64,000 nucleotides of DNA from NCBI GenBank assembly GCA_949299335.1, contig CASGAD010000011.1:29162-93161 (forward strand), given 5' to 3'. Position numbers and translations under genes: made by a program. The notes beneath the pieces were generated by a model. The model searched no databases and was not told the DNA's origin. It was given only the letters and a program-made list of their open reading frames with translations. Origin of the DNA: an uncultured bacterium (GTDB lineage Bacteria; Bacillota_I; Bacilli_A; RFN20; CAG-826). This document shows positions 33,613 through 61,753 of the stretch, in pieces. Positions within the stretch are counted from its first letter, which is position 1, and the number at the start of each line of letters is the position of its first letter.

Positions 33613-36600
33613 ATGAAGAAAAAATTAAGTATTTTGGCAATAACTGCTGTTGCATGTGGTTTTTTAGTTACATCATGTAATAATGTTGAAGAGCCAGATG
33701 TAGAGAAAGATTCTTACAAACTTTCAATTAATAAAGATGAAGGTGTAGAATCGGTAACTGTTTTTAGCGGTGAAACTGAAGTCAAAGATCTTACTCGTAT
33801 TGAAGAAGAGACTGAGTTGACAGCTAAAATTGTATTACTAGATAATTATGAACTTACTGCAGTCACTCTTGATGGTACTGCTTTATCCGCAACTGGAGGA
33901 ACTTATGTTTTTGAGATGCCTAGTAAAGATGCAACTTTAGAGGTTACAACCAGCCAAATCATTTTAAACTATGCGCTCACTATTGAAAAAGATGAAGGTG
34001 TAGAATCTGTCAAAATTTTCGCTGAAGATACTGAAGTTACTGATTTTACATCAATCGCCGAAGGAACTTCTTTGGAATTAAGAGTTACATTAAAGAATCA
34101 TTATAAAATTACTGCTGTGACTTTAGATGAAAAAGCTTTAACAACCGAGGATGGAAACTATGCTTTTTCAATGCCTAGTAATAACGCAAAATTAGCTATT
34201 TCCACCGAAAAAGTTTTTGATAGCGCAGTTGTTGTTAATAATGATTCAGATAAAGGAACATATACATTAACTATCAATGGTGAGGCTTCATCTGACGGGA
34301 AATGTAATGCTGGTGATAATGTATCTTTAACAATTACACCTAATGCTCATTGCAAAGTTTCATCAGTTGTTGTAAACGAAAAGACCATTGAATATACAGG
34401 TGAACCAGTTGTCTTTGAAGCAAAAGAAGGCACCAACAATGTAACAATCTCATATAGCCAAGAATATGTTATGAATTATGCAACTATTGGTTGCAGTTAT
34501 ACTTTATCTGTAAAATCTGGTGATCAGTTAATTACTAGTGGAGACTATGTTTATGAAGGACAATCTTTGACTTTGGAATTATCAGATGGTTGGTTCACTA
34601 GCACAAATGTACAAAAACTTTATTTCTATATTAATGATACTTTTGTAAAAGGCAATGATGAAAACGTTACTATTAGTGATGATTCTTCAACGATAACATA
34701 TAATTTTATTAGCAGTTCACAAGATACAAATATTTATTGCGTTATGAATAATTCTTTTACAACTGATGAAAGCGGAATAAGTATTTCTTTTGAAGAAAAT
34801 GAAAATGTAAGAGTTTTTGGATTTGAAGAAGGCGAGAAATATAGTGGTAATTACCCAACATTTAATTTTACTAAAAATCCAGGATACAATATTACAGGGC
34901 TTAAATTCTCTTATGCAGATGGCACAAGCGAAACATTTGAAGTTTCATCTACTGGAAACTCACCAATTTATTATCAAAATAATGTTAATTCGGGTGCAAT
35001 AATGTATCAATCAACAATAAGCCAAGATGTCGTAATCAGCTTTATTGGAGAAGTCGTTGAGACATATGATATTGAATATGTTGGTTTAGAAAATGTAACT
35101 TTCTCTAGATCACCAGTTAGTTTCTTAAAAACTGCACCAGCTGGCACTTCAGTTGTTGTGACAAATTTAGTTGCTAAAGATAGCAAAAATAGAATTGATA
35201 ATATAACGATTGAAAGTAATGGTGAACCTGTAGCAGATGCGAAGTTTACTCCTGCATCTCAATATAGTGATGCTTCTTATTCATTTACAATGCCAAGTGG
35301 TCCTGTCACAATTACATTTGTAATGAAAGAAAATGGTAAAATTACTGTTAATGCTGATGAAGGTGTTGAAAGTTATTCCGTTCGTGATAAAACCGGATTA
35401 GGATATAGTGAGATTGAGGCTTCTACACCAGGAACAAATTTCTATCTTTATATTCAAGCAAAAGAAGGATTTGCAATTTCTTCAGTTGTAGATGAAAACG
35501 ATAATGTATATAGTCCTATTACTACTAACGAATATGATTACACAACAGGAACAAGTAAAGTAGTAACATATGCTATTGTTCGTATGCCTGAGGATGGATC
35601 AAATATTACTTTGTCAATTAAGACAAGCGCAGCTTATAAAGTTACTTGTTCTGAAGGCGAAAACTACACACTCAATGTTAGTGGATACTCTAATAGTTAT
35701 GCTGAAGGTGCTAAAGTTACATTTAATGGAAGAACTTCAAGTTCTTTATATAATTTTAAAGATGTATATTTAGCTGATAGTAACGGAGAAAAGATTGATG
35801 CCACAATTGATCTTGTTAATAATGGATCTTCTATTAATGGTAGTTTCATGATGCCTGCTAAAGATGTAGTTATTACAGCTGTTGTTGAAAAATTAGATGT
35901 AGATGTTACGCCAATTAATGTTATAAATGAGGTTGAAGGAGTAGAAACTGCTAGCTTATTTAATACATTTAATATTAGTAACTATGCAAGTGGAATATCA
36001 ATTAATTCTTATAGTGAAAGTTTAGAAGCTGTATTTGTTCCAAATACTAGTACTTCAGTTAGTATTGGTTTAAAGAATGATACTTGTGGTGTTAAAGTTA
36101 GCTATGTTTTAAGCGATAATAGCGAAGAAGCATTTAGTGTAAGTAATATAAGTACATATAATGGAACACGTACATATTCATTCGTTAGTAAACCAGTACC
36201 AGAGAATTTATCAGCTATTAAAGTTGTTGTATATGAATTAGATGCTTTAACTTATTCTTTAGATGATAAATCCGGAGATGGATTAACAACTGGTGACTTA
36301 GAATTTACACTTAATTCTGCACAGGTAGATTCGCTTGATGGTGTGGTCTTTGAAGGTGCTAAATTAAAAGTTAATGCTACTAAAGATGCGGGTAGTGGTT
36401 TCGCATATATTGTTAGATTGCTAGATGCAACAACAAAAGAGGAATTAAAGAAAGATTATCAAGGTATTTACACTGTTTATGGAAACTTCGTTATTGAAAT
36501 TACAAAACTAGAAGCATATAAATTTAGTGTTAATACAACAGCTCCTCAAGGTGTTTATGCCACAATTACTCTTACAACGCCAGAAAACACTTCATATGTT

Positions 36601-36810
36601 GATGGAGACTTAATAATCGGAGAAGATAAAGCTGCTGTTAGATTCTATTTATACTTCTCGAGTTCAGAAGAAACAACAATTACTTATGAAGTAAAGGTTG
36701 GTGAAACAGTTATAGATAGTAAAACTGTAGAGAGTCAATATAGTTGGAACTATACAACCAGTGTATTTGATGTAACTGGGGATATAACTGTTACAGTAAC
36801 TGTCGAGTAA
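33613..36810 (+). CDS. Large surface lipoprotein (1065 aa) with tandem ~85-aa beta-rich repeats
   Basis: LVTSCNNVEE lipobox. Repeat 1 DSYKLSINKDEGVESVTVFSGETEV..AVTLDGTAL..YVFEMPSKDATL and repeat 2 ILNYALTIEKDEGVESVKIFAEDTEV..AVTLDEKAL..YAFSMPSNNAKL. Further degenerate repeats follow. Confidence 0.65.
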   Translation: MKKKLSILAITAVACGFLVTSCNNVEEPDVEKDSYKLSINKDEGVESVTVFSGETEVKDLTRIEEETELTAKIVLLDNYELTAVTLDGTALSATGGTYVFEMPSKDATLEVTTSQIILNYALTIEKDEGVESVKIFAEDTEVTDFTSIAEGTSLELRVTLKNHYKITAVTLDEKALTTEDGNYAFSMPSNNAKLAISTEKVFDSAVVVNNDSDKGTYTLTINGEASSDGKCNAGDNVSLTITPNAHCKVSSVVVNEKTIEYTGEPVVFEAKEGTNNVTISYSQEYVMNYATIGCSYTLSVKSGDQLITSGDYVYEGQSLTLELSDGWFTSTNVQKLYFYINDTFVKGNDENVTISDDSSTITYNFISSSQDTNIYCVMNNSFTTDESGISISFEENENVRVFGFEEGEKYSGNYPTFNFTKNPGYNITGLKFSYADGTSETFEVSSTGNSPIYYQNNVNSGAIMYQSTISQDVVISFIGEVVETYDIEYVGLENVTFSRSPVSFLKTAPAGTSVVVTNLVAKDSKNRIDNITIESNGEPVADAKFTPASQYSDASYSFTMPSGPVTITFVMKENGKITVNADEGVESYSVRDKTGLGYSEIEASTPGTNFYLYIQAKEGFAISSVVDENDNVYSPITTNEYDYTTGTSKVVTYAIVRMPEDGSNITLSIKTSAAYKVTCSEGENYTLNVSGYSNSYAEGAKVTFNGRTSSSLYNFKDVYLADSNGEKIDATIDLVNNGSSINGSFMMPAKDVVITAVVEKLDVDVTPINVINEVEGVETASLFNTFNISNYASGISINSYSESLEAVFVPNTSTSVSIGLKNDTCGVKVSYVLSDNSEEAFSVSNISTYNGTRTYSFVSKPVPENLSAIKVVVYELDALTYSLDDKSGDGLTTGDLEFTLNSAQVDSLDGVVFEGAKLKVNATKDAGSGFAYIVRLLDATTKEELKKDYQGIYTVYGNFVIEITKLEAYKFSVNTTAPQGVYATITLTTPENTSYVDGDLIIGEDKAAVRFYLYFSSSEETTITYEVKVGETVIDSKTVESQYSWNYTTSVFDVTGDITVTVTVE
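33709..34209 (+). repeat. Intragenic tandem duplication (2 x ~250 bp) encoding repeats 1 and 2 of the large lipoprotein
   Basis: Both units begin AAAGATGAAGGTGTAGAATC(G/T)GT and keep parallel downstream structure (..ACTGCAGTCACTCTTGATGG.. / ..ACTGCTGTGACTTTAGATGA..). Confidence 0.6.
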
Positions 36811-36840: not shown

Positions 36841-36869
36841 AAATCTGAGATTTAAAATCTCAGATTTTG
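36841..36869 (+). terminator. Rho-independent terminator after the large lipoprotein gene
   Basis: AAATCTGAGAT-ttaaa-ATCTCAGATTT hairpin followed by TTTT. Confidence 0.7.
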
Positions 36870-36878
36870 TGCTATAAT
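36870..36878 (+). promoter_or_regulatory. Extended -10 promoter element (TGcTATAAT) for the metallopeptidase-lipoprotein operon
   Basis: TGCTATAAT lies 30 nt upstream of ATG 36908 with the GAGGAAAG RBS between. Confidence 0.5.
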
Positions 36879-36907
36879 ACGTGTATTTTTGAGGAAAGAA
36901 AGTGTTT

Positions 36908-38641
36908 ATGAAAAAAAGAAAGTTTTTATTAATTGCTATTCCGCTATTTGCATTAAGTTCTTGTACACAAGATATTAGTGGGACAGATGTTAATTATTTG
37001 ACTAACAAAGATAATGGTACGGCAACTATAAGGATTTTTAAAGATGAGTCGGCTACGACAAAGGAAAGATATATATCACCTAAAAATGTTAAAGTTTCAA
37101 TGACTTACAATGACTTAAGTGGAACTTTGTCAAATAACGAAAACGTTTGCCCTTCTGTCGGAGATGTTAATTTGTTAGTTATTCCAGTTCATTTGCCTGG
37201 AAGTACATTTAATACACCAAAAGTTAAAGAAGATATCGAGAAAGCTTTTTTTGGAAAAGACGATCCTGACAATGGATACATGTCTTTAAGTGAATTTTAT
37301 TATGAGTCAAGCTTTGGAAAATTGAATTTTCAAGGGATTGTAACTGATTGGTTTGATGTTGAAAAATATACATCAATAAAATCAATTGGGGATATTACTG
37401 CTGGTACAAATGGTACGATTATTAGTGAAATATTAAGAAAAGCAACTGATTGGGCTTTTGAAAACTATGACATTGATAGAAAAGATTATGATCAAAACAA
37501 TGATGGTAGTTTAGATGGTGTTTGGCTAATATACGATCATTATAATTATTTTAATCAATTTTTATATGATAATAATAGTAGTGATGAGGATTTAAACGAA
37601 GCTTTTTGGAATTATACTAGCTGGGATTGGTATGGAGATGCTCCATCTTTAGAGTCTCCAACAACTAGTGGTTTTTCATGGGCTAGTTTCGATCAATTAT
37701 ATTCTGGTTATGCTGACTATAACGAAGAAGATATTCCTAATTTTTTTGATGATGGATTTGATTCTATAAAATTAGATTCACATACTTTTATTCATGAAAC
37801 TGGCCACTTATTGGGATTGGATGATTTATATACTAGCGATGGTCGTCGTCCAACCGGTTCATCAACAATGATGGATCAAAATATTGGCGATTTCGATCCA
37901 TATTCAAAACTTGTTTTAGGATGGATTACACCATATGTAGTTTATGGAAGTAGTGAAATATTATTAACTCATAATATGTATGATGATCATTCAGTAATTG
38001 TAATACCTTCTAATTATGAAGAAATTTCATCTACAATTGAAAGTTTAGCCGAGGAAGAAAAAGAAACGTTCGTTTATGAATTTAATCCATTTAGTGAATA
38101 CTTAATTATCGATTTATATTCTCCTTTAGGATTAAATTACAAGGATACATATGGAAGTGATGGATATTATGTGCATAATAGGGAAGCATGTATAGCCGAC
38201 ACTGGAGTAAGAATTTATCATTGTGATTCAAGAATTTTTAAATGCACCGTTGTTAATTATGATGGTGGACAAAAAATCTATCGGGATGAAGATGATTTAG
38301 AATGGAATGGCGAAAAATTAACGAAAGATGAAGCTATTATGACTTGCATTAGCAATGAAAGAAATGAATCTACTTCTTTTGGTCTACCTCAATCATTTGA
38401 TTATTTTGAAAGACTAAGATTATTGGAAGCTTCTGGAATTAATTCGTTTGATTTAGCATCATATGGATTAAATGATGGATATGCTACCAAAGAAACACTT
38501 TGGAATATTAATAGTAATAGTTTTGATATTTTAAAATTTGGATATCAATTCTTTAATGGTAAATATACCTATAATGATGGCAGCAATATGCCTTTTAAGG
38601 TGAAAGTAGAAACACTAGTAGGAGTTAAATATGAAAAATAA
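36908..38641 (+). CDS. Zinc metallopeptidase-like lipoprotein, HExxHxxGxxD motif (M6 / immune-inhibitor-A-like), paralog 1
   Basis: FALSSCTQD lipobox. HETGHLLGLDDLY matches the HExxHxxGxxD(x)Y zinc site of M6/InhA-type metzincin-like enzymes. N-terminal VGDVNLLVIPVHLPG strand resembles the M6 N-domain. Confidence 0.6.
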   Translation: MKKRKFLLIAIPLFALSSCTQDISGTDVNYLTNKDNGTATIRIFKDESATTKERYISPKNVKVSMTYNDLSGTLSNNENVCPSVGDVNLLVIPVHLPGSTFNTPKVKEDIEKAFFGKDDPDNGYMSLSEFYYESSFGKLNFQGIVTDWFDVEKYTSIKSIGDITAGTNGTIISEILRKATDWAFENYDIDRKDYDQNNDGSLDGVWLIYDHYNYFNQFLYDNNSSDEDLNEAFWNYTSWDWYGDAPSLESPTTSGFSWASFDQLYSGYADYNEEDIPNFFDDGFDSIKLDSHTFIHETGHLLGLDDLYTSDGRRPTGSSTMMDQNIGDFDPYSKLVLGWITPYVVYGSSEILLTHNMYDDHSVIVIPSNYEEISSTIESLAEEEKETFVYEFNPFSEYLIIDLYSPLGLNYKDTYGSDGYYVHNREACIADTGVRIYHCDSRIFKCTVVNYDGGQKIYRDEDDLEWNGEKLTKDEAIMTCISNERNESTSFGLPQSFDYFERLRLLEASGINSFDLASYGLNDGYATKETLWNINSNSFDILKFGYQFFNGKYTYNDGSNMPFKVKVETLVGVKYEK

Positions 38642-40193
38642 AAGATATATACCTTTTTTAGCCTTATTTTCTGCAATGATTTTGCCACTTTCTAGTTGTG
38701 GGAGTAGCAATGAATCAGAATATAAACAAATGGCTAAAATTACTATTTCAAATGATAAAGTTAATGAGAATAAAGTTTTTAATCCTGATGATGTTCAAAT
38801 TTCAATGACAATGAAAGACTTTGAGAATGAAGCTTATTATAATACTCAAGTTATGCCATCGACTGGAAATGTAAACATTTTAGTTGTACCTGTTTTAATA
38901 CCTGAATATAAAACAATTGATCTTGATAACGATGGACAAGATGATTCTGATAAAGTTTTAGAAGATATAAATACATTGTTTTTTGGCGATCCTGAACAAG
39001 ATGATAGATTAAAATTTGGCAGTGTTAAATCTTTTTACGAAGAATCTAGTTATAATAAACTTCATATTAATGGTGCAATAACTAGTTGGTTTGATGTCGA
39101 AAAAGAGTTAGGCTATACCAAGGCTGCTGAAATTACTAGTGATGTTACTAGTGTTATATTAGAAAAAGCAGTTGAAAATTATAGAAAGTCTAGAAAGGAT
39201 AATATGACACCTTTTGATAGTGACGATGATGGATTTATTGATGCTGTATGGTTAGTCTATTCAGCACCAAATTATACAAATAATGGTCCACATTTAGAAG
39301 ATTATAACTACTGGGCTTATACTTCATGGGCAAATCAAGATAGTGATGGCGATATTAATAAACCTGTTGCTAATGTCTATGGTTGGGCTAGTTTTGATTT
39401 TATGTATGAAGGATATGAAACATCATCGATCGATTCTCATACATTTATACATGAAACTGGGCATTTTTTAGGTCTTTCTGATTATTATTCAACGGATGGC
39501 AATGCACATTATTCTCCTATGGGTAAAGTCGATATGATGGATAATAACATTATTGACCATAACTCATTTTCTAAAATGCTATTAGGATGGACTAAACCAT
39601 ATTTAGTGTACGGAAATGCTGAAATTGATTTAAAATCAATGCAAAACGAAAATGCTTTTATTGTTATTCAAAGTGATGACACTGAAATAAGCAATAGTTT
39701 TAATCCTTTTGACGAATATATTTTAATAGAGTTATATACAAATGAAGGCCTAAATGAAATTGATAGCTATGACATTTACGATAGTGTTTTAGCTCCTCAA
39801 GGTATAGGAGTAAGAATATATCATATAGATAAAAGATTATTTACAATTTCACTAGATGAATTAAATAACAATAATTCAATCCAGTTATATGATGGTATTA
39901 ATAAACAAGAAGGATTTGTTACTCCTATTTCGAATTCTCGAGATAATGATGTCTACAATAATATATTTCATTTGGACAATACAATTAATCTTTTTGATGA
40001 GATAAGATTGATTGAAGCTAATGGCAAGGATACATTTTCAAATGGCGGATATCAAACACTTAAGAGTTATTTTAAAAATGGGGATAGCTTTTCTTTAAAA
40101 ACTCATTCTGCTTTTTTCAAATTTGATGAAAATGGCGACCCAATTTTAAATGATGGGTCAACCTTATCATATACAGTAGGAGTTAATTTATGA
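38631..40193 (+). CDS. Zinc metallopeptidase-like lipoprotein, HExxHxxGxxD motif (M6/InhA-like), paralog 2
   Basis: PLSSCGSSNE lipobox. HETGHFLGLSDYY. Collinear with paralog 1 (e.g. TGNVNILVVPVLIP, SWFDVEK, GWTKPYLVYG vs GWITPYVVYG). Overlaps the upstream gene by 11 nt. Confidence 0.6.
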   Translation: MKNKRYIPFLALFSAMILPLSSCGSSNESEYKQMAKITISNDKVNENKVFNPDDVQISMTMKDFENEAYYNTQVMPSTGNVNILVVPVLIPEYKTIDLDNDGQDDSDKVLEDINTLFFGDPEQDDRLKFGSVKSFYEESSYNKLHINGAITSWFDVEKELGYTKAAEITSDVTSVILEKAVENYRKSRKDNMTPFDSDDDGFIDAVWLVYSAPNYTNNGPHLEDYNYWAYTSWANQDSDGDINKPVANVYGWASFDFMYEGYETSSIDSHTFIHETGHFLGLSDYYSTDGNAHYSPMGKVDMMDNNIIDHNSFSKMLLGWTKPYLVYGNAEIDLKSMQNENAFIVIQSDDTEISNSFNPFDEYILIELYTNEGLNEIDSYDIYDSVLAPQGIGVRIYHIDKRLFTISLDELNNNNSIQLYDGINKQEGFVTPISNSRDNDVYNNIFHLDNTINLFDEIRLIEANGKDTFSNGGYQTLKSYFKNGDSFSLKTHSAFFKFDENGDPILNDGSTLSYTVGVNL

Positions 40194-41878
40194 CAAATAA
40201 AAAGTTATTTCTATTATCCTGCTTAGGTGTTTCTTTACTACTATCTTCTTGTGTGAGCAATTCATTAGTTGGCACTGGAAACGAAAATAAACCACAGACT
40301 CCAAGTTATGATGGGGGATTGCAAGGAGATGCCAGTGATGATGAGTTTATAGTTGAAGAAGATACTGATATTGAAACGCTTTTTGAAAACGCTGCGAAAT
40401 TACAAAAATATTCATATGAAGTAAGTGTAAATGTGAGCAAAACTCAAGAAGAGTTTACACAATATTTTACTGAGAATGCTTGGTATAGCGAATATGGTGA
40501 TGATAGTGATTTTGGCTATGCCCAAACATATAGTGAAAATAATTTATTTAAATTTTATATTAATGAAGAAGCAACTGAAGTTTACCCATCTGTATACGAA
40601 TACGGTGGTTATTATGCAAATGAGATTATTCAAGGATTATATAGTCCTTTAACTATTGCAAATATTAGTATGCTAGAGTCTACATTAGATACTCTTTCAA
40701 ATGATGGATATGAATGTTTAGGTAATAAATCTTATTTAGTTACTGATGTTGAAACAATGTCGGTTTTTCAATACATGTCAACATATGGAAGTTCAATTTC
40801 TGATTATATTGTTGCATTATATGTACAAATTATTGATTTAGATAGTTTAATTTTTGAAACTACATTAGATTTAGGCAGTTATGGATCTATTAAGGGCCTT
40901 TTTACTCCTCAAGAGAGTACTAAAATCGATTTTGTAAATGATGCAATTATTAATGATGGATTAAAAGGAATTAATGAACATCCTATGCTTTTAGAAGCTT
41001 CTAAAAAGTTTGATTTGAATAATTTTACTCTTAGTGGAGTTACTTTAATTGAATCTAATGGTTACAAAAATAAACCTACATCTACAATTTATTGTACAAA
41101 TGATTATTTTGTTTGTGATTTTGTTGATGAAAACTATTCTGATTTTGGCTTCGCTTTTATTAAAGCTAATACTATCATTGCTCTTTACGAAGAAACAGAA
41201 AGCGGAATAAGCAATAGTTATACTGAAATGAGTGTTGCTTATGATAGCTGTTATGAATTTAAATTCACAGAAGAAGGAGAAGTTAGATTTATTAAATTTA
41301 TTGGGCCACAAGAAACAGAAACAACTAAGTATTTATACGTTGATTCTTTACCTGAAGTTGGTGATGAAAATACTATTTATATCACTAAAAACTCTGAAGG
41401 AAAAATGATGGCTTATGAATATAGTGAAGGCGATAACGGATATACTTGGAAAGAATACTATGAATGGTATGATACGGTTGGAGATTTTTATGTATTTAAT
41501 GCTGGAGCAACTTTTTATCCAAGTTCAAATGCTTTTAGTGCTTTAGCTCCTTCGCTTTTTGAAACCGCAGATCATTCAGACTTAAATGATAACAATTTTA
41601 AGACTGCAAATAGTGATATTACATCTGCATTAGCTACTGGAATTTTTGGTTGGGGTTTCCAACCAACAACAACTTGGATGGGTTACATTACAGAAGCTTA
41701 TATGGATGTTAATTTGAATATTAATAACGAAATTGAATCTATTGATTTAGGATTAGGTGTTATGGCTTCTGTAAATGGTCATTTTGGTGTTCAAAGAATT
41801 TATTATAATTTCTCTAATTTCGGTTCAACTATGTATGCATCTGTTGATGATGCCTTATCATCAATTTATGGAGATTAA
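40190..41878 (+). CDS. Lipoprotein (562 aa), unknown function, same operon
   Basis: LLSSCVSNS lipobox. ATGA overlap with the upstream gene. No recognisable catalytic motif. Confidence 0.55.
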   Translation: MTNKKLFLLSCLGVSLLLSSCVSNSLVGTGNENKPQTPSYDGGLQGDASDDEFIVEEDTDIETLFENAAKLQKYSYEVSVNVSKTQEEFTQYFTENAWYSEYGDDSDFGYAQTYSENNLFKFYINEEATEVYPSVYEYGGYYANEIIQGLYSPLTIANISMLESTLDTLSNDGYECLGNKSYLVTDVETMSVFQYMSTYGSSISDYIVALYVQIIDLDSLIFETTLDLGSYGSIKGLFTPQESTKIDFVNDAIINDGLKGINEHPMLLEASKKFDLNNFTLSGVTLIESNGYKNKPTSTIYCTNDYFVCDFVDENYSDFGFAFIKANTIIALYEETESGISNSYTEMSVAYDSCYEFKFTEEGEVRFIKFIGPQETETTKYLYVDSLPEVGDENTIYITKNSEGKMMAYEYSEGDNGYTWKEYYEWYDTVGDFYVFNAGATFYPSSNAFSALAPSLFETADHSDLNDNNFKTANSDITSALATGIFGWGFQPTTTWMGYITEAYMDVNLNINNEIESIDLGLGVMASVNGHFGVQRIYYNFSNFGSTMYASVDDALSSIYGD

Positions 41879-41881
41879 TTT

Positions 41882-43885
41882 ATGAAAAAATTTCTATCTA
41901 TTATATCTTTTTCTTTCTTACTTTTTGGAAGTTTAACTTCTTGCGGAGATAGTGATGTCGGAAATGATACAAGTAAATACCCTACTCCAAAAGGTGCTCT
42001 ACAAGAAGCGTTTTATAAATTGAAAGATAATAATTTTACTTTATCTTATGAAGATTCTTATGCTGCTATTGGTATTAAAAGAAATCAAGAAACTAAATAT
42101 ACAACTTATTCACTTGAATCAAACGGTGACTTAGGATTCAATGGCTATGCTCAAAATGATGATTGTGTTTTTTCTTATAACATTGTTGATAATGAAGTCG
42201 TAAGTGGAGTACCAGTTATTGATTATAATAAAGGAATCATGATTAAGGATATCTATGATTATCGTGATGGGCTCGAAGATTTTGATTATACAATATTGCC
42301 TTCTACTTATAAAAGTGGTGAAGAATATAATTATGTTTTTGGTGAAAACACAAAAAACGATGAACTTATAATTTCAGTCTTTTTAAGAATGAATTATAAT
42401 CCATCTGCTTTGCCTCGTGAATTGACAATGAAAGTTGTTGCTGGCAATTTACAAATTAGTGCAATTACTAATTATTATGAATTACAAGATGCCTATGATT
42501 CTTGTAATGTTGTTGCTTATGATGTAGGAGAAACTGAGAATACTATAATTAAAAAATACCTTGATGATGGCTTGACTTCTAAAACTCCTTTGGATCAAAA
42601 GTTCTTCCATTTAATCGCGCCATATTTAGAATCTTATAATTATAAGACAACAATTGATGCTAGAAGCCTTAAAACCGAAGATGGCATGGGGTATGAAACA
42701 TTTCTTCAAGATCAGTATTTTACTGAGAACGCCATAATTTATGATACTTTAAGCGACAATTCTAATGTTGTGACTGGGGACCTTCAAACTGGCCTTGGCT
42801 TAGTATGTAATTTCTCAATGAATAGCATAGATGCTGATAAAATTGATATTACATACACACCTCCTACACAAGATGGCGAATTTTATACTTATTTATATGG
42901 TGAATATTTAACATATTCAATGGCTTCTTTAAATTTTTCAAATTTCGTTGGATATGTTGATGATACAAAAGAAAATTCATATTATATTACTGACTCTCAA
43001 ACAATTAGTATTTTAAGTTATATTTGCCAATACGAAATTAACGATACAGATAGAGCCGTTAGAAGCTTACGTTTAGAAGTTGATGATTGGAACAAGAATG
43101 AATTTACATTATATTTTGATATTTATAATCGTTCTACAAATTTAGATAAAGGTGAGTTAAAGGTTAAATTTAGTGATGTAAACAATGTTTCAATGCCTGC
43201 AGTTGAGCGCTACTTAAATATTGGTGGTAAGGCTTCCGAACAAAATTTGGATACTTTGAAATCAGTTTTAAATAAATTTAAGAGTAATAATTACTCCATG
43301 GATATTTATGGAGGTTTTGGATTAGCAAAAGCTTATTTTACTGAAAATTATTATTATTTTGAAACCTATGGAAGCAAAGCTAATAACTATGGCTTCATTA
43401 AATTAGATGGTTCGATATATGAGTTCTCATTAGTTTATAATAATGACAATGAAATAACTGATATTTCAATCGACAAGAGTAAAGATTTAGTAGATGAAGG
43501 TATGCAATTGCCTGGCTGCGGAGCCTTCTATGGTAGTGATGATGATGCTTTCTATTTCTCTTGTTTTGATGAAAGCATATATGACTATGATGAATATGAG
43601 CAAGATAATATTTTTGGATATAGTTATTGGAGAAATAAAACATCAGGACTAAGTCAAAAGATTCTAGATTATTTTTCACCTAATAACACTGTAAATTTAC
43701 CACAAGGTAGCGGATTTATGGTTAGTGATGGTGGGGATGATAGTTATGATACAAGAGTAACATTAGTACTTTCGTATAGTAATGAAAACGCCACGCAATT
43801 TGGAGCTTATATGGCCACTTATTATGATATTGATGGTACAAGTTTTGATTATTTAGATAATTTTATATTAGAAAATAATAAGTGA
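41882..43885 (+). CDS. Lipoprotein (667 aa), unknown function, same operon
   Basis: SLTSCGDSD lipobox. Starts 3 nt after the upstream stop. Confidence 0.55.
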   Translation: MKKFLSIISFSFLLFGSLTSCGDSDVGNDTSKYPTPKGALQEAFYKLKDNNFTLSYEDSYAAIGIKRNQETKYTTYSLESNGDLGFNGYAQNDDCVFSYNIVDNEVVSGVPVIDYNKGIMIKDIYDYRDGLEDFDYTILPSTYKSGEEYNYVFGENTKNDELIISVFLRMNYNPSALPRELTMKVVAGNLQISAITNYYELQDAYDSCNVVAYDVGETENTIIKKYLDDGLTSKTPLDQKFFHLIAPYLESYNYKTTIDARSLKTEDGMGYETFLQDQYFTENAIIYDTLSDNSNVVTGDLQTGLGLVCNFSMNSIDADKIDITYTPPTQDGEFYTYLYGEYLTYSMASLNFSNFVGYVDDTKENSYYITDSQTISILSYICQYEINDTDRAVRSLRLEVDDWNKNEFTLYFDIYNRSTNLDKGELKVKFSDVNNVSMPAVERYLNIGGKASEQNLDTLKSVLNKFKSNNYSMDIYGGFGLAKAYFTENYYYFETYGSKANNYGFIKLDGSIYEFSLVYNNDNEITDISIDKSKDLVDEGMQLPGCGAFYGSDDDAFYFSCFDESIYDYDEYEQDNIFGYSYWRNKTSGLSQKILDYFSPNNTVNLPQGSGFMVSDGGDDSYDTRVTLVLSYSNENATQFGAYMATYYDIDGTSFDYLDNFILENNK

Positions 43886-43895
43886 GGTTAATAAA

Positions 43896-46757
43896 ATGAG
43901 AAAGAGTTTTTTAGCTTTAAGTTTGTTAGTTGCTATTGCACCAATTGGATTAGTACTTAATTCTTGTAGCAATGATAATGTTCAAAATGAAGATAACATT
44001 ACAGGTGTTGAGATTTCTGGACCAATTTGGGTAAATGTAGGCAGTAGCATTACATTGAAGGCTGACGTCATAGGAAGCGATGATGATTTAGTTAACTGGA
44101 AGGTAAATGATGAAACAATTGCTACCATAGATAATGATGGAAAATTAACTGGTATTAGTGAAGGTGAAGTTGAAGTCACAGCCACATCAGTTGCTGCGCC
44201 TGAATTTTCTGGTAAATATACAGTTTCTATAAAAGGTATACAGTCTGAAGGAATAGAACTAGTTATTTTATCTGATGATCCAGATATTAAAATCGAAAAT
44301 GGCATTTATCGAATTCCTGGTGGAAAGGAATTTAAAATTGGCTATAAGTTAACTAATGAAAGCGCAAGTAAGCCAACAAGTGTTGCTTATTCCTTTTCTT
44401 TCGCTAACGGAGATTCTGCGACAAGTTTACTTTGTGATATTGAATTACAAGAGGATCAAACTGCTATAGTTAAATTTAATAGTGTTTTTACTGGCGGTGT
44501 TTTAACTGTCGCAGCAAGATATACTTCTTCAATTAATCCAGAATTAAAACACTCTATTTCTGTTGAAAGCTACGACAAAAATAGTGATAACGATGCAAAA
44601 CTTGAGGATATTATCGAAAATATTAAAGAGAAAGAATTGTCAAGCTTAACTAGTGCTCATAGAAAAGTTATTACTTTAAATGAAACTTCGAATAGTGGAG
44701 TAAGTGAAATAAACGAGAACTTCGAAATTTATGATGGTGCTGTATATAGTAGTAAATCTACAACTATTGACGATGAAACTACAAAGGAAAATACATATTC
44801 GACAGTTGATGCTACTAACAATGCGTTCTATTTATTCTCTTATAATAATGATAAAACTATTGATACTATTTATATGAATGAGGTTTATGATGTATCAGAA
44901 AAAGATATTTATTTAGAATATTCTAAATTGCCTCATTTTATAGGAAAAGAGTTGCCATCTTTTGGATTTGGTTCATTATTGAATTCAATGTCGTTTAATG
45001 ATACATATGAAGGCGGTGATGCTTTTGGCAATTTTGATGCGAAGGGCAATGCTACTTATACTTTCAATTCAAATAACGTAGTAATAAAAAGTGAATTTAT
45101 CAATGAATCTCAAAACACTATTGATTTATCTTTGGAATTTAATTATTCGTCTAGTTATGAATTAACTGATTATGAGTTTGTATATTCTGTAAAGCTTAAT
45201 GGTGAAACAGAATCTAAAGTTTATTATCAAGAAAATGGTAGTAACTTTGTTTATGGTGATAAAGAAATCGACACCGATAAAGACATTGATATAAGTTTAT
45301 ATTATATTAAGTCTTTTAATGTTGAATATATCGAAAATTATTATCCTGAGGATAATTCTAGATATGAATATATTTCGCACGAAGTTGATTCTGAAGGCAA
45401 TGATGTTTATTCTTTAACATATGATCATTCATTGCCATTACAAATTAGACAAATTGTACCTAACACAGGAAGCACTTTAATTGATGTTGCTAAAGTTGTA
45501 GCAAAAACTACTGATGCAGAAACGAAAAATTATTATATTTATGAAGATGGTTCAATTGTTATTTCTGCACCAAAGAACGAGGATGGAGATTTCTTCGAAT
45601 GCACTACAACTGTTGAATTCGAAACTAGAGGTGGCGGCAAAGATAAGGTTTTAATCAATTGGATAAAACCAGATTTAACTGGAATTAAATTTTCATATTC
45701 TAATAGTAGTCAAATGCCAGAGAACACATTTACTTTCCCATCTATTAGAGCCTATCAAAACACTGCATATTTTTGGTTAAACCCAATACCTGATGATTCT
45801 ATATACAATTTCGGAATGAAAGTTGTTGAGGGTGATGAAAGTGGAATAAAATTAACCAAATATGAAGATGCAGCTAATATGGATAGAGCCCCAAGAGGAT
45901 CATATGCTATTGACGGAATTAAAGTTGGAACTTATACATTCTACTTCTATGTTGAAGGATATGAAGAAATTAAAACTCAAAATTATACCATTACTGTTTT
46001 AGAACCTATAAGTGTTGATGAATATAAGAGCAATTTAATTGGCAATACATACTTATACACAACTGGTATAAGTAAATTTGAATTAACTTTTGCATCCGAA
46101 ACAGACATGATTTTAAAAATGCCAACTTATCTTGCAGATACAACTAGTGGAGGAAGCGTTACAACTGTTGAAGAACATATTTCATATAAAATTAACGAAG
46201 GACAAGTAACTATTGACACTGATGGCGTAGACAAAGTTAACCAAATCTTTGAATCAACCGACGGATACTTTGAATCTGCATATGGTGGACCAATTGAAAT
46301 TAGCGATGATTTTACATCAGTTGGAATCAAATTAAGAATTAGAAGTGATGCTGAAGGCGATAAAGCCAATAATAGTTATAATGTATACACATTTACCAAA
46401 GTAGCTGATTTAGATGGCTTGGCAGGTAAAAAAGTTGAAACACAAGCGTTTATTACTGATTATGGTATGAGTAAATTTACTTTATCATTCTTAGATGATA
46501 CAAATGCTATGTTAGAAGTATATTCAGCAAATAATGTTTTTATTGGTGGTTTTACTTTTACTTATCAATATGACAAAGAAAATAATCAATTTATTGCAAG
46601 TAACGTGCTTTTATCTGACAACTGTGTCGAAGGTTTTGCTTATAAAGATATTTCTTTAATTTATGGAACTAATAATTTAAGAGTCTCGATATTAATTCCA
46701 AATCAATATTATGTTGCAACAGTCAATGCTGATTTTGATTTAAGTAAAGCTATATAA
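43896..46757 (+). CDS. Large lipoprotein (953 aa) with N-terminal bacterial Ig-like (Big_2) domain
   Basis: LVLNSCSNDN lipobox. ITGVEISGPIWVNVGSSITLKADVIGSDDDLVNWKVNDETIATIDNDGKLTGISEGEVEVTATS is a canonical Big_2 fold signature. Confidence 0.65.
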   Translation: MRKSFLALSLLVAIAPIGLVLNSCSNDNVQNEDNITGVEISGPIWVNVGSSITLKADVIGSDDDLVNWKVNDETIATIDNDGKLTGISEGEVEVTATSVAAPEFSGKYTVSIKGIQSEGIELVILSDDPDIKIENGIYRIPGGKEFKIGYKLTNESASKPTSVAYSFSFANGDSATSLLCDIELQEDQTAIVKFNSVFTGGVLTVAARYTSSINPELKHSISVESYDKNSDNDAKLEDIIENIKEKELSSLTSAHRKVITLNETSNSGVSEINENFEIYDGAVYSSKSTTIDDETTKENTYSTVDATNNAFYLFSYNNDKTIDTIYMNEVYDVSEKDIYLEYSKLPHFIGKELPSFGFGSLLNSMSFNDTYEGGDAFGNFDAKGNATYTFNSNNVVIKSEFINESQNTIDLSLEFNYSSSYELTDYEFVYSVKLNGETESKVYYQENGSNFVYGDKEIDTDKDIDISLYYIKSFNVEYIENYYPEDNSRYEYISHEVDSEGNDVYSLTYDHSLPLQIRQIVPNTGSTLIDVAKVVAKTTDAETKNYYIYEDGSIVISAPKNEDGDFFECTTTVEFETRGGGKDKVLINWIKPDLTGIKFSYSNSSQMPENTFTFPSIRAYQNTAYFWLNPIPDDSIYNFGMKVVEGDESGIKLTKYEDAANMDRAPRGSYAIDGIKVGTYTFYFYVEGYEEIKTQNYTITVLEPISVDEYKSNLIGNTYLYTTGISKFELTFASETDMILKMPTYLADTTSGGSVTTVEEHISYKINEGQVTIDTDGVDKVNQIFESTDGYFESAYGGPIEISDDFTSVGIKLRIRSDAEGDKANNSYNVYTFTKVADLDGLAGKKVETQAFITDYGMSKFTLSFLDDTNAMLEVYSANNVFIGGFTFTYQYDKENNQFIASNVLLSDNCVEGFAYKDISLIYGTNNLRVSILIPNQYYVATVNADFDLSKAI

Positions 46758-46781
46758 ATTTAGAATAATTATTTACTTATT

Positions 46782-46816
46782 AAAAATACTCTCCCTTAAA
46801 AATGGGAGAGTATTTT
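46782..46816 (+). terminator. Rho-independent terminator closing the operon
   Basis: AAAATACTCTCCC-ttaaaaat-GGGAGAGTATTTT. Confidence 0.75.
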
Positions 46817-46915
46817 AATAGATGAGGAAATATATCATGATTAATGCTAACATATTTTTAAAATTAATTAGACATATGTTCCTATTTTATGAAAGTTATC
46901 TTTTTTGTATTATTT

Positions 46916-47337
46916 TATAAGGTTATAATAAAAACATGATTAATGTAGCAATAAATGATGATATTAAGGAAGATGCTGATGCTTTAAAAAATGCACTTAA
47001 AGCGATTGAAGTTGACTATAATGTTATTTTTAATAATTTCTTTTTTGAAAGTGGAGAATCTTTTTAATTAATTACGAAAAGAATAAATATGATTTAATTT
47101 TTTTTGGATATTGAATTAGGAAAAGAAAACGGAATTAATGTTGCGAGAAAACTAAGAGTAATTGATAAAGAAACAATTATTATTTTTGTTACAAATGTAG
47201 CTAAATACGCTACCGAAGGATACGAAGTAGACGCACTAGATTATATCGTTAAACCCGTTGAAAAATTCGCTTTACAATTAAAAATGTCTAGAATAATTTC
47301 TAGAGTTCAAAAAATATTACTAATACAATTTTAATAA
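46916..47337 (+). pseudogene. Remnant of a LytTR-type response regulator (receiver domain only), frameshifted and truncated
   Basis: Reads MINVAINDDIKEDADALKNALKAIEVDYNVIFNNFFFESGESF, then a frameshift at a T5 run, then LINYEKNKYDLIF, then a frameshift at a T8 run, then FLDIELGKENGINVARKLRVIDKETIIIFVTNVAKYATEGYEVDALDYIVKPVEKFALQLKMS. Collinear with the intact regulator at 18306 (..FLDIEMSEINGMNVAHKIRKRNDFVIIVFVTRLISYAIEGYSVGAFDYVLKPFDEIEFNIKMQ). The LytTR domain is missing. Confidence 0.75.
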
Positions 47338-47350
47338 AAAGTATCAATGA

Positions 47351-48229
47351 CGAAATTATTTAGATTTCAATAGAGAGAATAAAATATTTAGAAGTAGATG
47401 GTCATTATATTATTTACCACCTATGATAATGGCAGGTTTTTTATATTTAGGAGCAGGCTTATGCATGGTTATTTTATACACAATTTATTTTATAAAACAT
47501 GCAAAACTGCGATTAAATTTTCAAAAAGGAGCATTAATTTATATAATTTTAATGATTTGCTTAGATGTTATTGCTCCAATTTTACTAATGTTATGACTTT
47601 CAATAACATCAGCTTCTAACGCATCTTTATTAAATAATTTTGAAATAGTAATGACTAGTCTTATAGCTTTTATAATTTTTAAAGAACATATTTCTTTTCG
47701 ATTGTCATTGGGAATAATTGTAGTGACACTATCTTGTGGCATTTTATCCTTTGAGGGTTTAGACGCTTTAAAATTTTCCATGGGGTCAATCTTTGTATTA
47801 CTGGCAGCTACCTGTTGGGGCATAGAAAATAATTGTACAAGGAAAATATCATATCTTGATCCTAAATTTATAGTCCTATTAAAAGGTATTTTTTCTGGAG
47901 GAATTTCGTTAACATTAGGATTTATATTTCAAGAAAGTATAGTCTTTACTTGGCCAGTATTTGCTTCCTTGGGAGTTGGAGTGGTGGCTTATGGATTGTC
48001 TATTTTCTTTTATGTATATGCTCAAAGATATATAGGGGCAGCTAAGACAAGTACCTTTTATGCAATTGCACCTTTTATATTGACATTATTATCAATTATT
48101 ATTTTTCAAGAAGAGATTACTATTCAATATTTAATGGCCTTAATTTTAATGATTTTAGGTGTGTATTACGTGAGTAATGAAACACCTTTTGCTAATGTAT
48201 ATCAAAAATATATATTAAGCAGATATTAA
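47351..48229 (+). pseudogene. EamA/DMT-family transporter, N-terminally truncated with an in-frame TGA
   Basis: A single frame from 47351 to 48229 encodes 9 TM segments of a two-domain EamA transporter (..APILLML*LSITSASNASLLNNFEIVMTSLIAFIIF.. and second EamA domain from 47651). In-frame TGA at 47594-47596. No start codon before the first TM, and TM1 is absent. The frame abuts the response-regulator remnant. Confidence 0.65.
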
Positions 48230-49399: not shown

Positions 49400-50206
49400 T
49401 TATTTATGGCTTGAACTCACTATAACTTTAAAATGCTTAAGTGCGTTATATAGTCCGTCATTTTCGATATTATCAGTAACGTAATATGCATATTTTTTAG
49501 CTTCATCTTTGCCATTGCCTAAACATATTCCATATTTAACCATCTCAAACATTGGAATATCATTTATATCATCCCCAAAGGCCATGGCTTCTTCTTTTTT
49601 AAGATTTAAATAATTATAGATTGTTTTAACGCCAGTACTTTTTAAAAATTCTTTAGCAGTTAATTCAATATTAGTATCTGCAAATCTATTAAATAGTAAG
49701 TGGTACTTGTCAGCCATTTCTTTAAGTAATGGATCATCAGTTGCTCTAGAAAAAATTTGAATAGCTAAAACTTTTTCGTTTTGATACTTAGAAAAATCAA
49801 GTGGGTAAGGTTCATAAAAAACATCATAGAATTCTTTAATGATATTTTTATCAACTTCTTTAATGTAAGTATTGTATTGAGTAATTAAGTTATAGCCAAA
49901 ATGATGTTTGTCTAAAAAAGTGATAATTTTATTTTTAATCGCATCATCGATAAAATCAGCATAAAGAGTTTTAGAATCAATCATACAAGCCCCGCCATTA
50001 GTGACTACATAGCCATCAAATGGTATTAAATCAAATGTTTTTAATCCTTTTAATGCGTAATAAGTTCTTGCTGAATTGATTATTAACTTTACGCCTTTTT
50101 CATGAGCTTTATTTAAGGCCTCAACACCTTTTTTGTTAAACGTTCTTGTTTTATGATCGAATAAAGTCCAATCAAAATCTAAAAATATTGCTTTAATTTT
50201 GTCCAT
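49400..50206 (-). CDS. Cof-type HAD-IIB phosphatase
   Basis: KAIFLDFDWTLFDH (DxDxT motif I), ..INSART (motif II), ..GDDINDIPMF (motif IV, GDxxND). Confidence 0.8.
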   Translation of the reverse strand: MDKIKAIFLDFDWTLFDHKTRTFNKKGVEALNKAHEKGVKLIINSARTYYALKGLKTFDLIPFDGYVVTNGGACMIDSKTLYADFIDDAIKNKIITFLDKHHFGYNLITQYNTYIKEVDKNIIKEFYDVFYEPYPLDFSKYQNEKVLAIQIFSRATDDPLLKEMADKYHLLFNRFADTNIELTAKEFLKSTGVKTIYNYLNLKKEEAMAFGDDINDIPMFEMVKYGICLGNGKDEAKKYAYYVTDNIENDGLYNALKHFKVIVSSSHK

Positions 50207-53349: not shown

Positions 53350-55590
53350 ATGTTAAAAGAAAGAATTCATAGAAATTTTAGGTTGTTTTTTTGTTTGTCA
53401 TTTTTTGGTGTTTTATTGCTTGTTTCTTGTAGTGGCACTAATGAAATTAGTGAAGCTAAAACATTTGAATTTACTGAAAGCGAGATAAATATTCTAGTAA
53501 ACGAAAAATGTGAAGTAAAAGTTGAAGCTAGTGAAAATATCGATTTACTTGAAGACATTGTTTATTCATTTAATGGAACTGATGAACTTACATTAACTAA
53601 TAGCGAAACCGGACTAAATATTGAAGGAAATAAAGAAGGAAGTTATATAGTTAATGCAAAATATAAAGATGATGAAGAGATAATCACTTCCTTAATGGTT
53701 AATGTAAATACCGCAAAAGATGAATATGAATATAAATTGTGTTTAGATACTTCAGCTACTAAAACAAAATATTTAAAAGGTGAGGAATTTACTAGTGAAG
53801 GTTTAGTTGTTTACGCTAGTTTATACATTAACGGAGTAGAAAATGAAGATTATCGTTTTTATTTAGAAAACTATATTATTCCATTTAATGATGGTGAAGT
53901 CTTAAATGAACTCGGTGAATTCGAAGTTGTAATAAACTCTGATCCATATGGAAAAGTATCTTATACAATTAGTGTTTTAGAAAGTTATGAAGAAACTAAT
54001 TATGAAATAGACACAACTAATGCAACTAAAAGTTATTTAAAGAATTCCTCTTTCTCAACCTATGGCTTAAAAGTTTATGAAATTAAGACTAAGTATTATC
54101 TAGATTCTACTAATAACAAGGTAATCGAAGAGCATAAATCAGAAGTAACAAATTATAGTGTTTCTTTAGCCAGTGGAACTAAGTTAGATAGTAATGGAAT
54201 TTATGAAATTATAGTTGAAATAAACGGATTTAAAGATTCATTTAATATCACAGTCTATGAAAGCGATTCAACAATTAAGGAAGTTGCTACTAGCTATATC
54301 AATACTAAAAATATTGGCTTAGTCATTAATTCAACAATTAGCACAGAAGATAATGTCTATGGACTAAATAGGCATATAACTTATAAACAAAATTATGTAG
54401 ATATTAAAGAATATCAAAAGAGTAGTCGAGAAGATTATTCCCTTGATGTAATTAATGAAGAATACGGGCTTCTTAAAGATGGAAATAATAATAGTTTTAC
54501 TTATTCAATAAATGAAGAGACTATTAAAGTTAATGAGTTAGTAAAACAAAATACATCTTCTCTTTGGGACATTCTAGATTACGCTAATATAAGTAGTTTC
54601 AAAGTATTTGAAAGTAAAGATTTCCCATTAATAACTTTAAAAGATAATGAACATTATTATAAAGAATTCATTAATAGAGGGACTTTAAATGATTCAACGA
54701 TTAGTTCTTATCCAATAATTGAAGGAGCCTTTAAATTAGCTAAGTTAGATTTATCGCTTTATGAATTTGTTTCTAGTTATGAAGTAAGTGTTAAAGATAG
54801 CTTAATCGATATAAAAGTGAACGTTGATTACTTTGGGTACATAGAAATTTCTACAATCCCTCAAAGTGAAAATAATGATCTTGAATTAATAAATAACGCC
54901 ACAAAAAGCAAAGATTTTACATTTAGTGAAGAGGTTAATAATAGTGTAACTTCTATATTAGAATTAATGAAATTAGATAATTACACATTTAACTCTGGTA
55001 GTGGCATAGTTCAATATTACAACCCAAATTATTTCTATGTACATTATGATCCAATTTACGCATTAGCTGGATTAACTTCAATTGGTTACTTAAAGGTTGA
55101 AGAGCCAGTAGGAGAACTAGATAAAGCAGGAATTTATTCATTTAAAGTTAATGAAAATGGAAGTGTAATGACTTTAGATGAATCAAGTTTGACGTTAGTT
55201 TATGAGGATACTTCTTTAATTAAGTATTCTTCATTATTTACCCAATTTGTGCCAGGGTATTTATCTAATTCCTTTAAATCCTTAATGAATGATCCATTAA
55301 GTTTAGCAACATTTAAAGTAGTAGAAGGGACGAACAATGCTTTATTTTCTACTAACGCAGATGTTGGAGAAACGTTTATGAATTACTTCTTTGGTGAAGG
55401 TGAGTCAGATAATAGAACTAACGCTATGAATTATGGTTATATTAATGGAGCAATGCTTTCAGCAGTAGATGAAAGTGGAAATAAAAATTTAATTCTAATG
55501 TGTGTAAGTAGATCACTATATGGTTATTCTAAAACATTAACCAATGTAGGAAATACTTACATTGAAAGTATTGATAATTTTATAAAGTGA
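53350..55590 (+). CDS. Surface lipoprotein (746 aa) with N-terminal Ig-like domains
   Basis: LLLVSCSGTNE lipobox. Big_2-like block FEFTESEINILVNEKCEVKVEAS...; Big_3-like block KYLKGEEFTSEGLVVYASLYINGVE... Confidence 0.6.
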   Translation: MLKERIHRNFRLFFCLSFFGVLLLVSCSGTNEISEAKTFEFTESEINILVNEKCEVKVEASENIDLLEDIVYSFNGTDELTLTNSETGLNIEGNKEGSYIVNAKYKDDEEIITSLMVNVNTAKDEYEYKLCLDTSATKTKYLKGEEFTSEGLVVYASLYINGVENEDYRFYLENYIIPFNDGEVLNELGEFEVVINSDPYGKVSYTISVLESYEETNYEIDTTNATKSYLKNSSFSTYGLKVYEIKTKYYLDSTNNKVIEEHKSEVTNYSVSLASGTKLDSNGIYEIIVEINGFKDSFNITVYESDSTIKEVATSYINTKNIGLVINSTISTEDNVYGLNRHITYKQNYVDIKEYQKSSREDYSLDVINEEYGLLKDGNNNSFTYSINEETIKVNELVKQNTSSLWDILDYANISSFKVFESKDFPLITLKDNEHYYKEFINRGTLNDSTISSYPIIEGAFKLAKLDLSLYEFVSSYEVSVKDSLIDIKVNVDYFGYIEISTIPQSENNDLELINNATKSKDFTFSEEVNNSVTSILELMKLDNYTFNSGSGIVQYYNPNYFYVHYDPIYALAGLTSIGYLKVEEPVGELDKAGIYSFKVNENGSVMTLDESSLTLVYEDTSLIKYSSLFTQFVPGYLSNSFKSLMNDPLSLATFKVVEGTNNALFSTNADVGETFMNYFFGEGESDNRTNAMNYGYINGAMLSAVDESGNKNLILMCVSRSLYGYSKTLTNVGNTYIESIDNFIK

Positions 55591-55599
55591 GGTGGGAAT

Positions 55600-57474: not shown

Positions 57475-57486
57475 AGGAGAAAAAGT

Positions 57487-59730: not shown

Positions 59731-59741
59731 AGGAGAGAGTT

Positions 59742-61748: not shown

Positions 61749-61753
61749 AAAAA

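Follow-up and report, generated by a model that had tools for sequence, protein, structure and literature searches.

Among described metalloproteases the closest to those reported here are the InhA-type enzymes or thuringilysins (MEROPS family M6), such as InhA from Bacillus and PrtV from Vibrio, which act outside the cytoplasm and have the zinc site HExxHxxGxxD, in which Asp is the third ligand and downstream of which a Met-containing segment is conserved. InhA has a length of about 800 amino acids (aa). In a 64,000-nucleotide (nt) stretch of DNA from an uncultured, low-GC member of the Bacilli associated with the gut, referred to below as the window, we analyzed five genes, g1 to g5 numbered from 5' to 3', the first two of which encode proteins with the same features and with a catalytic domain that is recognized by the M6 family hidden Markov models (HMMs). 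The two differ from InhA in that their scores are low, that no match extends outside the catalytic domain, that InhA-type accessory domains were not found, that the chains are much shorter (520-579 aa), and that they are predicted to be lipid-anchored rather than secreted and occur as a constant tandem pair accompanied by three partner lipoproteins. Snapalysin (family M7) has the nearly identical motif HETGHxLGLxDxY, but the similarity covers only ~30 residues (E 0.3), and the ~130 aa of snapalysin have no further homology to g1 and g2. Asp as third zinc ligand is a mark of both the snapalysins and the thuringilysins of the M6/InhA group (PMC12237041).

For g3 and g4 the nearest relatives by predicted structure are the mycobacterial glycolipid-carrier lipoproteins LprG, LprF and LppX and the proteins LolA, LolB and RseB. 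From these g3 and g4 are separated by a sequence identity of only 5-14%, with no Pfam match, by two to three tandem copies of the domain per chain instead of one, by a host that is a member of the Bacillota and lacks an outer membrane or mycomembrane, and by genes that are encoded together with proteases. The LolA/LppX/LprG-like fold normally holds hydrophobic ligands or unfolded segments.

Two further systems are similar in concept. In the mycoplasma MIB-MIP pair a surface binder of immunoglobulin, MIB, which is related to Protein M, stands beside a serine protease, MIP. The analogy to this pair, drawn in a preliminary description of the locus, goes as far as a binder and a protease side by side in a lipoprotein-rich relative of the Bacilli; the module described here has five components and its proteases are metalloproteases, and among the Pfam and NCBIfam matches of all five proteins the MIB and MIP families are absent. 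The lactococcal PrtP-PrtM-Opp system combines an anchored extracellular protease (PrtP, subtilisin-like serine protease) with an accessory lipoprotein (PrtM, of the peptidyl-prolyl isomerase type) and an oligopeptide importer into a nutritional pathway. It is resembled by paralogs of g1 and g2 that lie directly behind Opp operons, whereas no Opp genes are adjacent in this window.

Architecture of the five-gene locus

The five open reading frames (ORFs) lie head to tail, all on the plus strand, and their junctions, −11, −4, +3 and +10 nt, agree in full with the preliminary description:

g1: 36908 (ATG) to 38641, plus strand, 577 aa, alternative GTG start at 36902, lipobox LSSC
g2: 38631 to 40193, plus strand, 520 aa, lipobox LSSC
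g3: 40190 to 41878, plus strand, 562 aa, lipobox LSSC
g4: 41882 to 43885, plus strand, 667 aa, lipobox LTSC
g5: 43896 to 46757, plus strand, 953 aa, lipobox LNSC

On conspecific metagenome contigs the same genes are found with identical lengths, the gene callers there likewise giving 577 aa for g1. A GGAG-type Shine-Dalgarno sequence stands 7-9 nt upstream of each of the five starts. The N-termini of all five products are signal peptides that end in a lipobox Cys (pattern check, orthologs included), in agreement with the claim that every product has a lipobox; that of g5 is atypical in its N at −2, but the boxes of the g5 orthologs are canonical. These N-termini predict for all five products a lipid anchor that fixes them to the outside of the cell membrane.

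When each species was represented by a single genome, scanning yielded 78 loci encoding relatives of g2. In the closest species-level loci the order g1-g2-g3-g4-g5 is found on one strand in all cases (20/20), with junctions that are almost always ≤20 nt. These syntenic loci come from metagenome-assembled genomes (MAGs) of uncultured Bacilli in human, horse, rabbit and other gut or faecal samples, including Clostridium sp. CAG:568. With the same lengths in conspecific contigs and the order kept in 20 other species, the gene order can be taken as more than chance. Identities to the window orthologs are 44-80% for g1, 46-75% for g2, 28-67% for g3 and g4 and 21-52% for g5. The mean corrected distances from g1 to g5 (0.75, 0.80, 1.28, 1.38 and 2.04) show that divergence rises along the operon and that g5 evolves fastest. 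In the distance matrices g3, g4 and g5 co-vary with r 0.85-0.88 and g1 and g2 with r 0.64 (mirror-tree values, for which there is no valid p-value), a soft hint at two co-evolving sub-groups, g3/g4/g5 and g1/g2.

That g1 to g5 probably form one co-transcribed operon, as proposed in the preliminary description, is strongly backed by the 20/20 synteny, by the tiny junctions and by a terminator-like hairpin with T-run at the position equivalent to that after g5 in 14 of 19 orthologous loci. The elements at the two ends of the putative operon are the following:

Upstream hairpin: 36841 to 36867, plus strand, 12-bp stem, ΔG −14.3 kcal/mol, z −6.8, followed by UUUUG
Promoter-like site: 36851 to 36878, plus strand, TTTAAA, 16 nt and the extended −10 box TGcTATAAT at 36870 to 36878, a consensus match only
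Terminator-like hairpin: 46777 to 46821, plus strand, ΔG −21.4 kcal/mol, z −6.8, followed by UUUUAAU

The terminator-like hairpin behind g5 corresponds to the strong terminator that had been noted there. The upstream hairpin ends the preceding gene, which codes for a 1065-aa lipoprotein, and separates it from the operon; it overlaps the −35-like hexamer TTTAAA, and just 3' of it, in the 91-nt gap, sits TGcTATAAT. The promoter-like site matches the consensus in 10 of 12 positions, the TG being present, and to this extent the extended −10 promoter placed at 36870 is there. Promoter-like matches are not enriched in the AT-rich DNA of the window (77 found vs. 96.5 expected), however, and no more than 2 of 19 orthologous loci retain the strict extended −10 motif, so that only its position speaks for the site as a candidate promoter. 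Internal terminator-like sites at 40742 and 43294 were discarded as weak and within chance (8 found vs. 4.2 ± 2.1), and an Rfam scan of the region gave no match.

Two of the scanned loci deviate. In L063 (9554-15930) two tandem M6 lipoprotein genes are directly followed by a gene for a g5-like protein (E 2e-32) without g3 or g4, possibly a simpler version of the module or its ancestral state. In L008 (13161-15152) a frameshift or a MAG assembly error divides the g4 ortholog into two ORFs (261 and 390 aa).

The two predicted proteases and their three putative partners

The products of g1 and g2 are 34% identical over their full length (E 3e-86) and are thus paralogs, as had been stated. The zinc sites, also described before as intact, were confirmed by direct translation:

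g1 zinc-binding motif HETGHLLGLDDLY: 37793 to 37831, plus strand
g2 zinc-binding motif HETGHFLGLSDYY: 39450 to 39488, plus strand

In an alignment of 33 members of the g2 family HExxHxxGxxDxY and a downstream MMD are invariant (columns H274, E275, H278, G281, D284, Y286, M302, M303 and D304); the MMD, 16 residues past the Asp-Tyr of the g2 motif, is a candidate Met-turn. HExxH is kept in 18 of the 19 g1 orthologs that cover the site. The exception, L014 (8214-9917), has QETAH and therewith no first zinc-binding His, and MND in place of MMD; g2 is intact there, and the g1 ortholog appears to be a natural pseudo-protease inside a conserved module.

Both proteins match M6 family HMMs, though only as divergent members. 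The M6 domain model TIGR03296 matches g1 at aa 103-371 (E 8.5e-19, 68.5 bits) and g2 at aa 108-371 (E 3.2e-27, 96.2 bits), and g2 in addition passes the gathering threshold of Pfam Peptidase_M6 (PF05547; 26.8 vs. 22 bits). Most of the 754 homologs of g2 carry a precomputed PF05547 match and some a PF05548 match. The ~150 C-terminal residues of g1 and g2 beyond the HMM match had no match in Pfam, NCBIfam and PDB sequence searches, and crystallin matches that came up when g2 or the family profile was searched against PDB sequences were dismissed as chance. We conclude that g1 and g2 are predicted active, catalytically competent Asp-metzincin zinc endopeptidases and, as far as their sequences tell, a divergent, short and lipid-anchored branch of the M6/InhA (thuringilysin) family, of which they are new members.

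The lipoproteins g3 and g4 had been described as having no recognizable motif. In Pfam and NCBIfam there was indeed nothing at E ≤1 except a sub-threshold match of g3 to DUF7604, which we rejected because a single one of the 45 family members showed it. When profiles were searched against PDB sequences, g3 had no match and g4 one that was not significant. Profile-profile alignment, however, aligned g3 residues 73-323 with g4 residues 251-507 (probability 97%, E 1e-10), which shows that the two are homologous, distant paralogs. AlphaFold2 models computed from the family alignments were confident (pLDDT 87.5 for g3 and 89.2 for g4) and have an unclosed β half-barrel with a helical plug, as in the LolA/LppX-LprAFG superfamily. 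Structure comparison of the g3 and g4 models, in this order, gave the scores:

LprF (mycobacterial glycolipid-carrier lipoprotein): 9.5 and 10.1
LprG: 9.2 and 9.6
LppX: 9.0 and 7.7
LolA, LolB and RseB: about 5.6-7.3 and about 4.6-7.1

A Foldseek search of the PDB supported the LolA match with a probability of 0.99. Besides LolA and RseB the Foldseek matches were low-TM and multi-domain; those to TbpB and PCNA (probability ≤0.54, TM-scores very low) were disregarded. Secondary-structure maps indicate that the LolA/LprG-like unit is repeated two to three times per chain, with three copies in g4. By their models g3 and g4 are therefore tandem LolA/LppX/LprG-like half-barrel domain proteins, two new families of a known fold in a new, tandem and protease-linked context, and the verdict that they lack recognizable features no longer applies. 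When 1.84 billion proteins were searched exhaustively with the g4 profile HMM, no more than 63 representative clusters came up, of which ~30 are full length, and among the 78 retrieved loci the g3 and g4 HMMs match only the 20 syntenic ones. To date, therefore, the two families have been met nowhere but next to this pair of proteases.

The Big_2 Ig-like domain attributed to the 953-aa protein g5 is present at aa 36-98 (nt 44001-44189; E 3.5e-9, 36.9 bits vs. a Pfam gathering threshold of 22.8) and recurs in 18 of 19 g5 orthologs. A PDB profile search with g5 matched only Ig-like domains (intimin, Lig), and about 800 aa outside the N-terminal Big_2 are without a recognizable domain. Homology of g5 to g3 and g4 was rejected, since hhalign gave only short matches with 79-81% probability. 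Within the module g5 would be the most exposed component, the one that contacts the target.

Proposed function of the module

We favor, with a probability of roughly 0.5, the reading that the five genes encode a co-translated, membrane-anchored module for surface proteolysis and ligand capture, which is most likely nutritional. The five proteins would be made together from one mRNA, each from its own Shine-Dalgarno sequence, with coupled translation suggested by the stop/start overlaps, and would act as one surface module. In this module g5, together with g3 and g4, would bind or hold a macromolecular substrate or hydrophobic products, and g1 and g2 would cleave the substrate that is held. The most likely purpose would be the supply of peptides, perhaps also of other nutrients, to a nutritionally dependent cell. 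The analysis shows the gene structure, the paralogy, the conserved active site, the predicted folds and the synteny; that the five proteins physically associate, which substrate they act on and that they serve nutrition we infer.

The clue to nutrition comes from more distant M6 lipoprotein paralogs (≤42% identity), which are frequently arranged in tandem. Such paralogs lie, in at least nine species, on the same strand directly downstream of a complete Opp oligopeptide importer, confirmed by Pfam, in the order OppA-OppB-OppC-OppD-OppF, usually a 232-aa protein, and then one to three M6 lipoprotein genes:

Opp-M6 arrangement, on a single strand: L025, L030, L031, L040, L042, L047, L054, L061 and L076

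An aminopeptidase of family M24 is encoded near the M6 genes at 13 loci, and at several of the Opp-M6 loci it follows a few genes downstream. This linkage is a classic nutritional arrangement; for the five-gene module the clue is indirect, because the window is without Opp genes. ATPases labeled OppDF near the module in L007, L013, L018 and L019 were not counted, since they are possibly generic ABC (ATP-binding cassette) ATPases; in L018 and L019 they have neighbors with a different permease type.

Several points weigh against this reading. The curated cut-off of TIGR03296 (110.8 bits) is reached by neither protease (68.5 and 96.2 bits), the Pfam scan gave no match for g1, and a profile search of PDB sequences missed InhA and returned only the marginal snapalysin motif match (E 0.3); of the M6/InhA identity given in the preliminary description, probable membership in the family stands, as that of a divergent branch. 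Co-transcription is something that we infer, and the LolA-like fold predicted for g3 and g4 does not reveal a ligand. Finally, there are no Opp genes within the 64-kb window, and the Opp linkage belongs to paralogs at ≤42% identity and not to the five-gene module itself.

It has also to be considered that the module serves the evasion of host defence, with the proteases cleaving immunoglobulin A (IgA), antimicrobial peptides or mucins and with the Ig-like domain of g5 and the lipoproteins g3 and g4 acting as target-binding adaptors, functionally like InhA or MIB-MIP. The family resembles InhA, the habitat is the animal and human gut, and Thomasclavelia ramosa, a relative from the Erysipelotrichales, has an Asp-metzincin that cleaves IgA (PMC12237041). 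Moreover, g5 evolves fastest (2.04 vs. 0.75-0.80 for the proteases), as expected of a host-facing or immune-exposed component, although the same would be expected of any exposed surface protein. Yet the Pfam and NCBIfam scans brought up no relation to an IgA protease or to MIB/MIP, and paralogs from this family have Opp importers and an M24 aminopeptidase as neighbors, which is a nutritional signature. For the InhA-style cleavage of host-defence proteins and for the MIB-MIP analogy, both put forward in the preliminary description, we found no support; the only functional association is that of the Opp-adjacent paralogs, and it points to nutrition. We regard a role in host defence as unlikely.

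Less probable still is that g3 and g4 are latency factors, inhibitors or folding chaperones of g1 and g2, comparable to the partners in serralysin-Inh, staphopain-staphostatin, the Listeria pair of a metzincin and a TIMP-like lipoprotein, and PrtP-PrtM. Two paralogous proteases would face two paralogous partners (2+2 stoichiometry), the partners are found only beside this protease pair, the proteases are short and without an obvious long propeptide, and a metzincin encoded beside an inhibitor-like lipoprotein has a precedent (PMC8235301). Inhibitors of 562 and 667 aa with two to three domains would be very large, however, the distance matrices of g3 and g4 co-vary with that of g5 instead of those of g1 and g2, and the known β-barrel inhibitors are closed 8-stranded barrels, not half-barrels of the LolA type.

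The proposal that the proteases mature or shed the abundant lipoproteins of the cell itself, as in mycoplasma surface processing, while the LolA-like proteins handle acylated N-termini, has in its favor that LolA is the canonical lipoprotein-acyl carrier fold and that lipoprotein genes abound in the window (33613-36810, 53350-61748), but g3 and g4 are themselves predicted to be membrane-anchored, a Lol-type ABC partner is not present, the confinement of the family to a small clade would be odd for a housekeeping function and no finding connects the proteases with substrates of the cell itself; we consider this proposal very improbable.

A more far-reaching picture, which we consider a speculation with little chance of being right, is that of a previously unknown five-component surface machine of genome-reduced gut Bacilli, possibly without peptidoglycan, that would link proteolysis with the capture of hydrophobic cargo. 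Lipoprotein or membrane material of host or dietary origin would be held by g5 and deprived of its protein by the metzincins, and the lipids or lipopeptides set free in this way would be picked up by g3 and g4 and handed on to the membrane. If true, this would be a lipid- and peptide-scavenging device without described counterpart.

Surroundings of the locus and significance

The window also encodes GH2, GH3, GH43 and a rhamnosidase, which characterizes the organism as a saccharolytic gut anaerobe and agrees with the nutritional reading. The neighboring features of note are:

33613 to 36810, plus strand: the 1065-aa lipoprotein, with repeated β-rich units of ~95 aa and a weak Flg_new_2/InlB B-repeat match
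46936 to 47364, plus strand: remnant of a response-regulator receiver domain
49400 to 50206, minus strand: Cof/HAD-type hydrolase
53350 to 63501, plus strand: second cluster, with five large genes in tandem and lipoboxes in genes one to four

Homologs of the 1065-aa lipoprotein (22-44% identity) adjoin the module, upstream or downstream, in 8 of 20 related genomes. The receiver remnant differs from the near-identical contigs L079 and L080 by three frame-breaking homopolymer changes (T6 to T5, T7 to T8, A7 to A6), for which sequencing errors in the assembly or true decay may be responsible; the intact version of the gene is still truncated ahead of its LytTR-like part, and the adjoining gene for an EamA transporter looks truncated, too. 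The Cof/HAD-type hydrolase is 33% identical to a HAD protein that recurs a few genes downstream of M6 genes in distant relatives, in a block with the order M24-u579-HAD; this likeness suggests residual backbone synteny around the protease locus. In the second tandem cluster three proteins have an N-terminal Big_2, two of them together with BspA-type LRR_5 (E down to 5.5e-114). The cluster looks like another surface or adhesion locus.

Neither this operon nor M6 lipoproteins from these lineages are described in the literature that we found, and within this scope the five-gene module is undescribed as a unit. For the related order RFN20 some families have been predicted to be without peptidoglycan, and both RFN20 and ML615J-28 have been reported to be without sortases (PMC10868615). 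Lipoproteins may therefore be the main route of surface display in these bacteria.

The uncultured Bacilli related to Mycoplasmatales (RFN20, RF39 and allies) are common residents of the gut that are known only from MAGs. In such organisms few surface modules comprise several genes and also lend themselves to an activity test; the operon described here is one of them. Should its five products assemble into a complex, this would reveal how these bacteria feed on, or defend themselves against, their host. Even without a complex the results allow a better annotation of several hundred 'hypothetical proteins' in gut MAGs.

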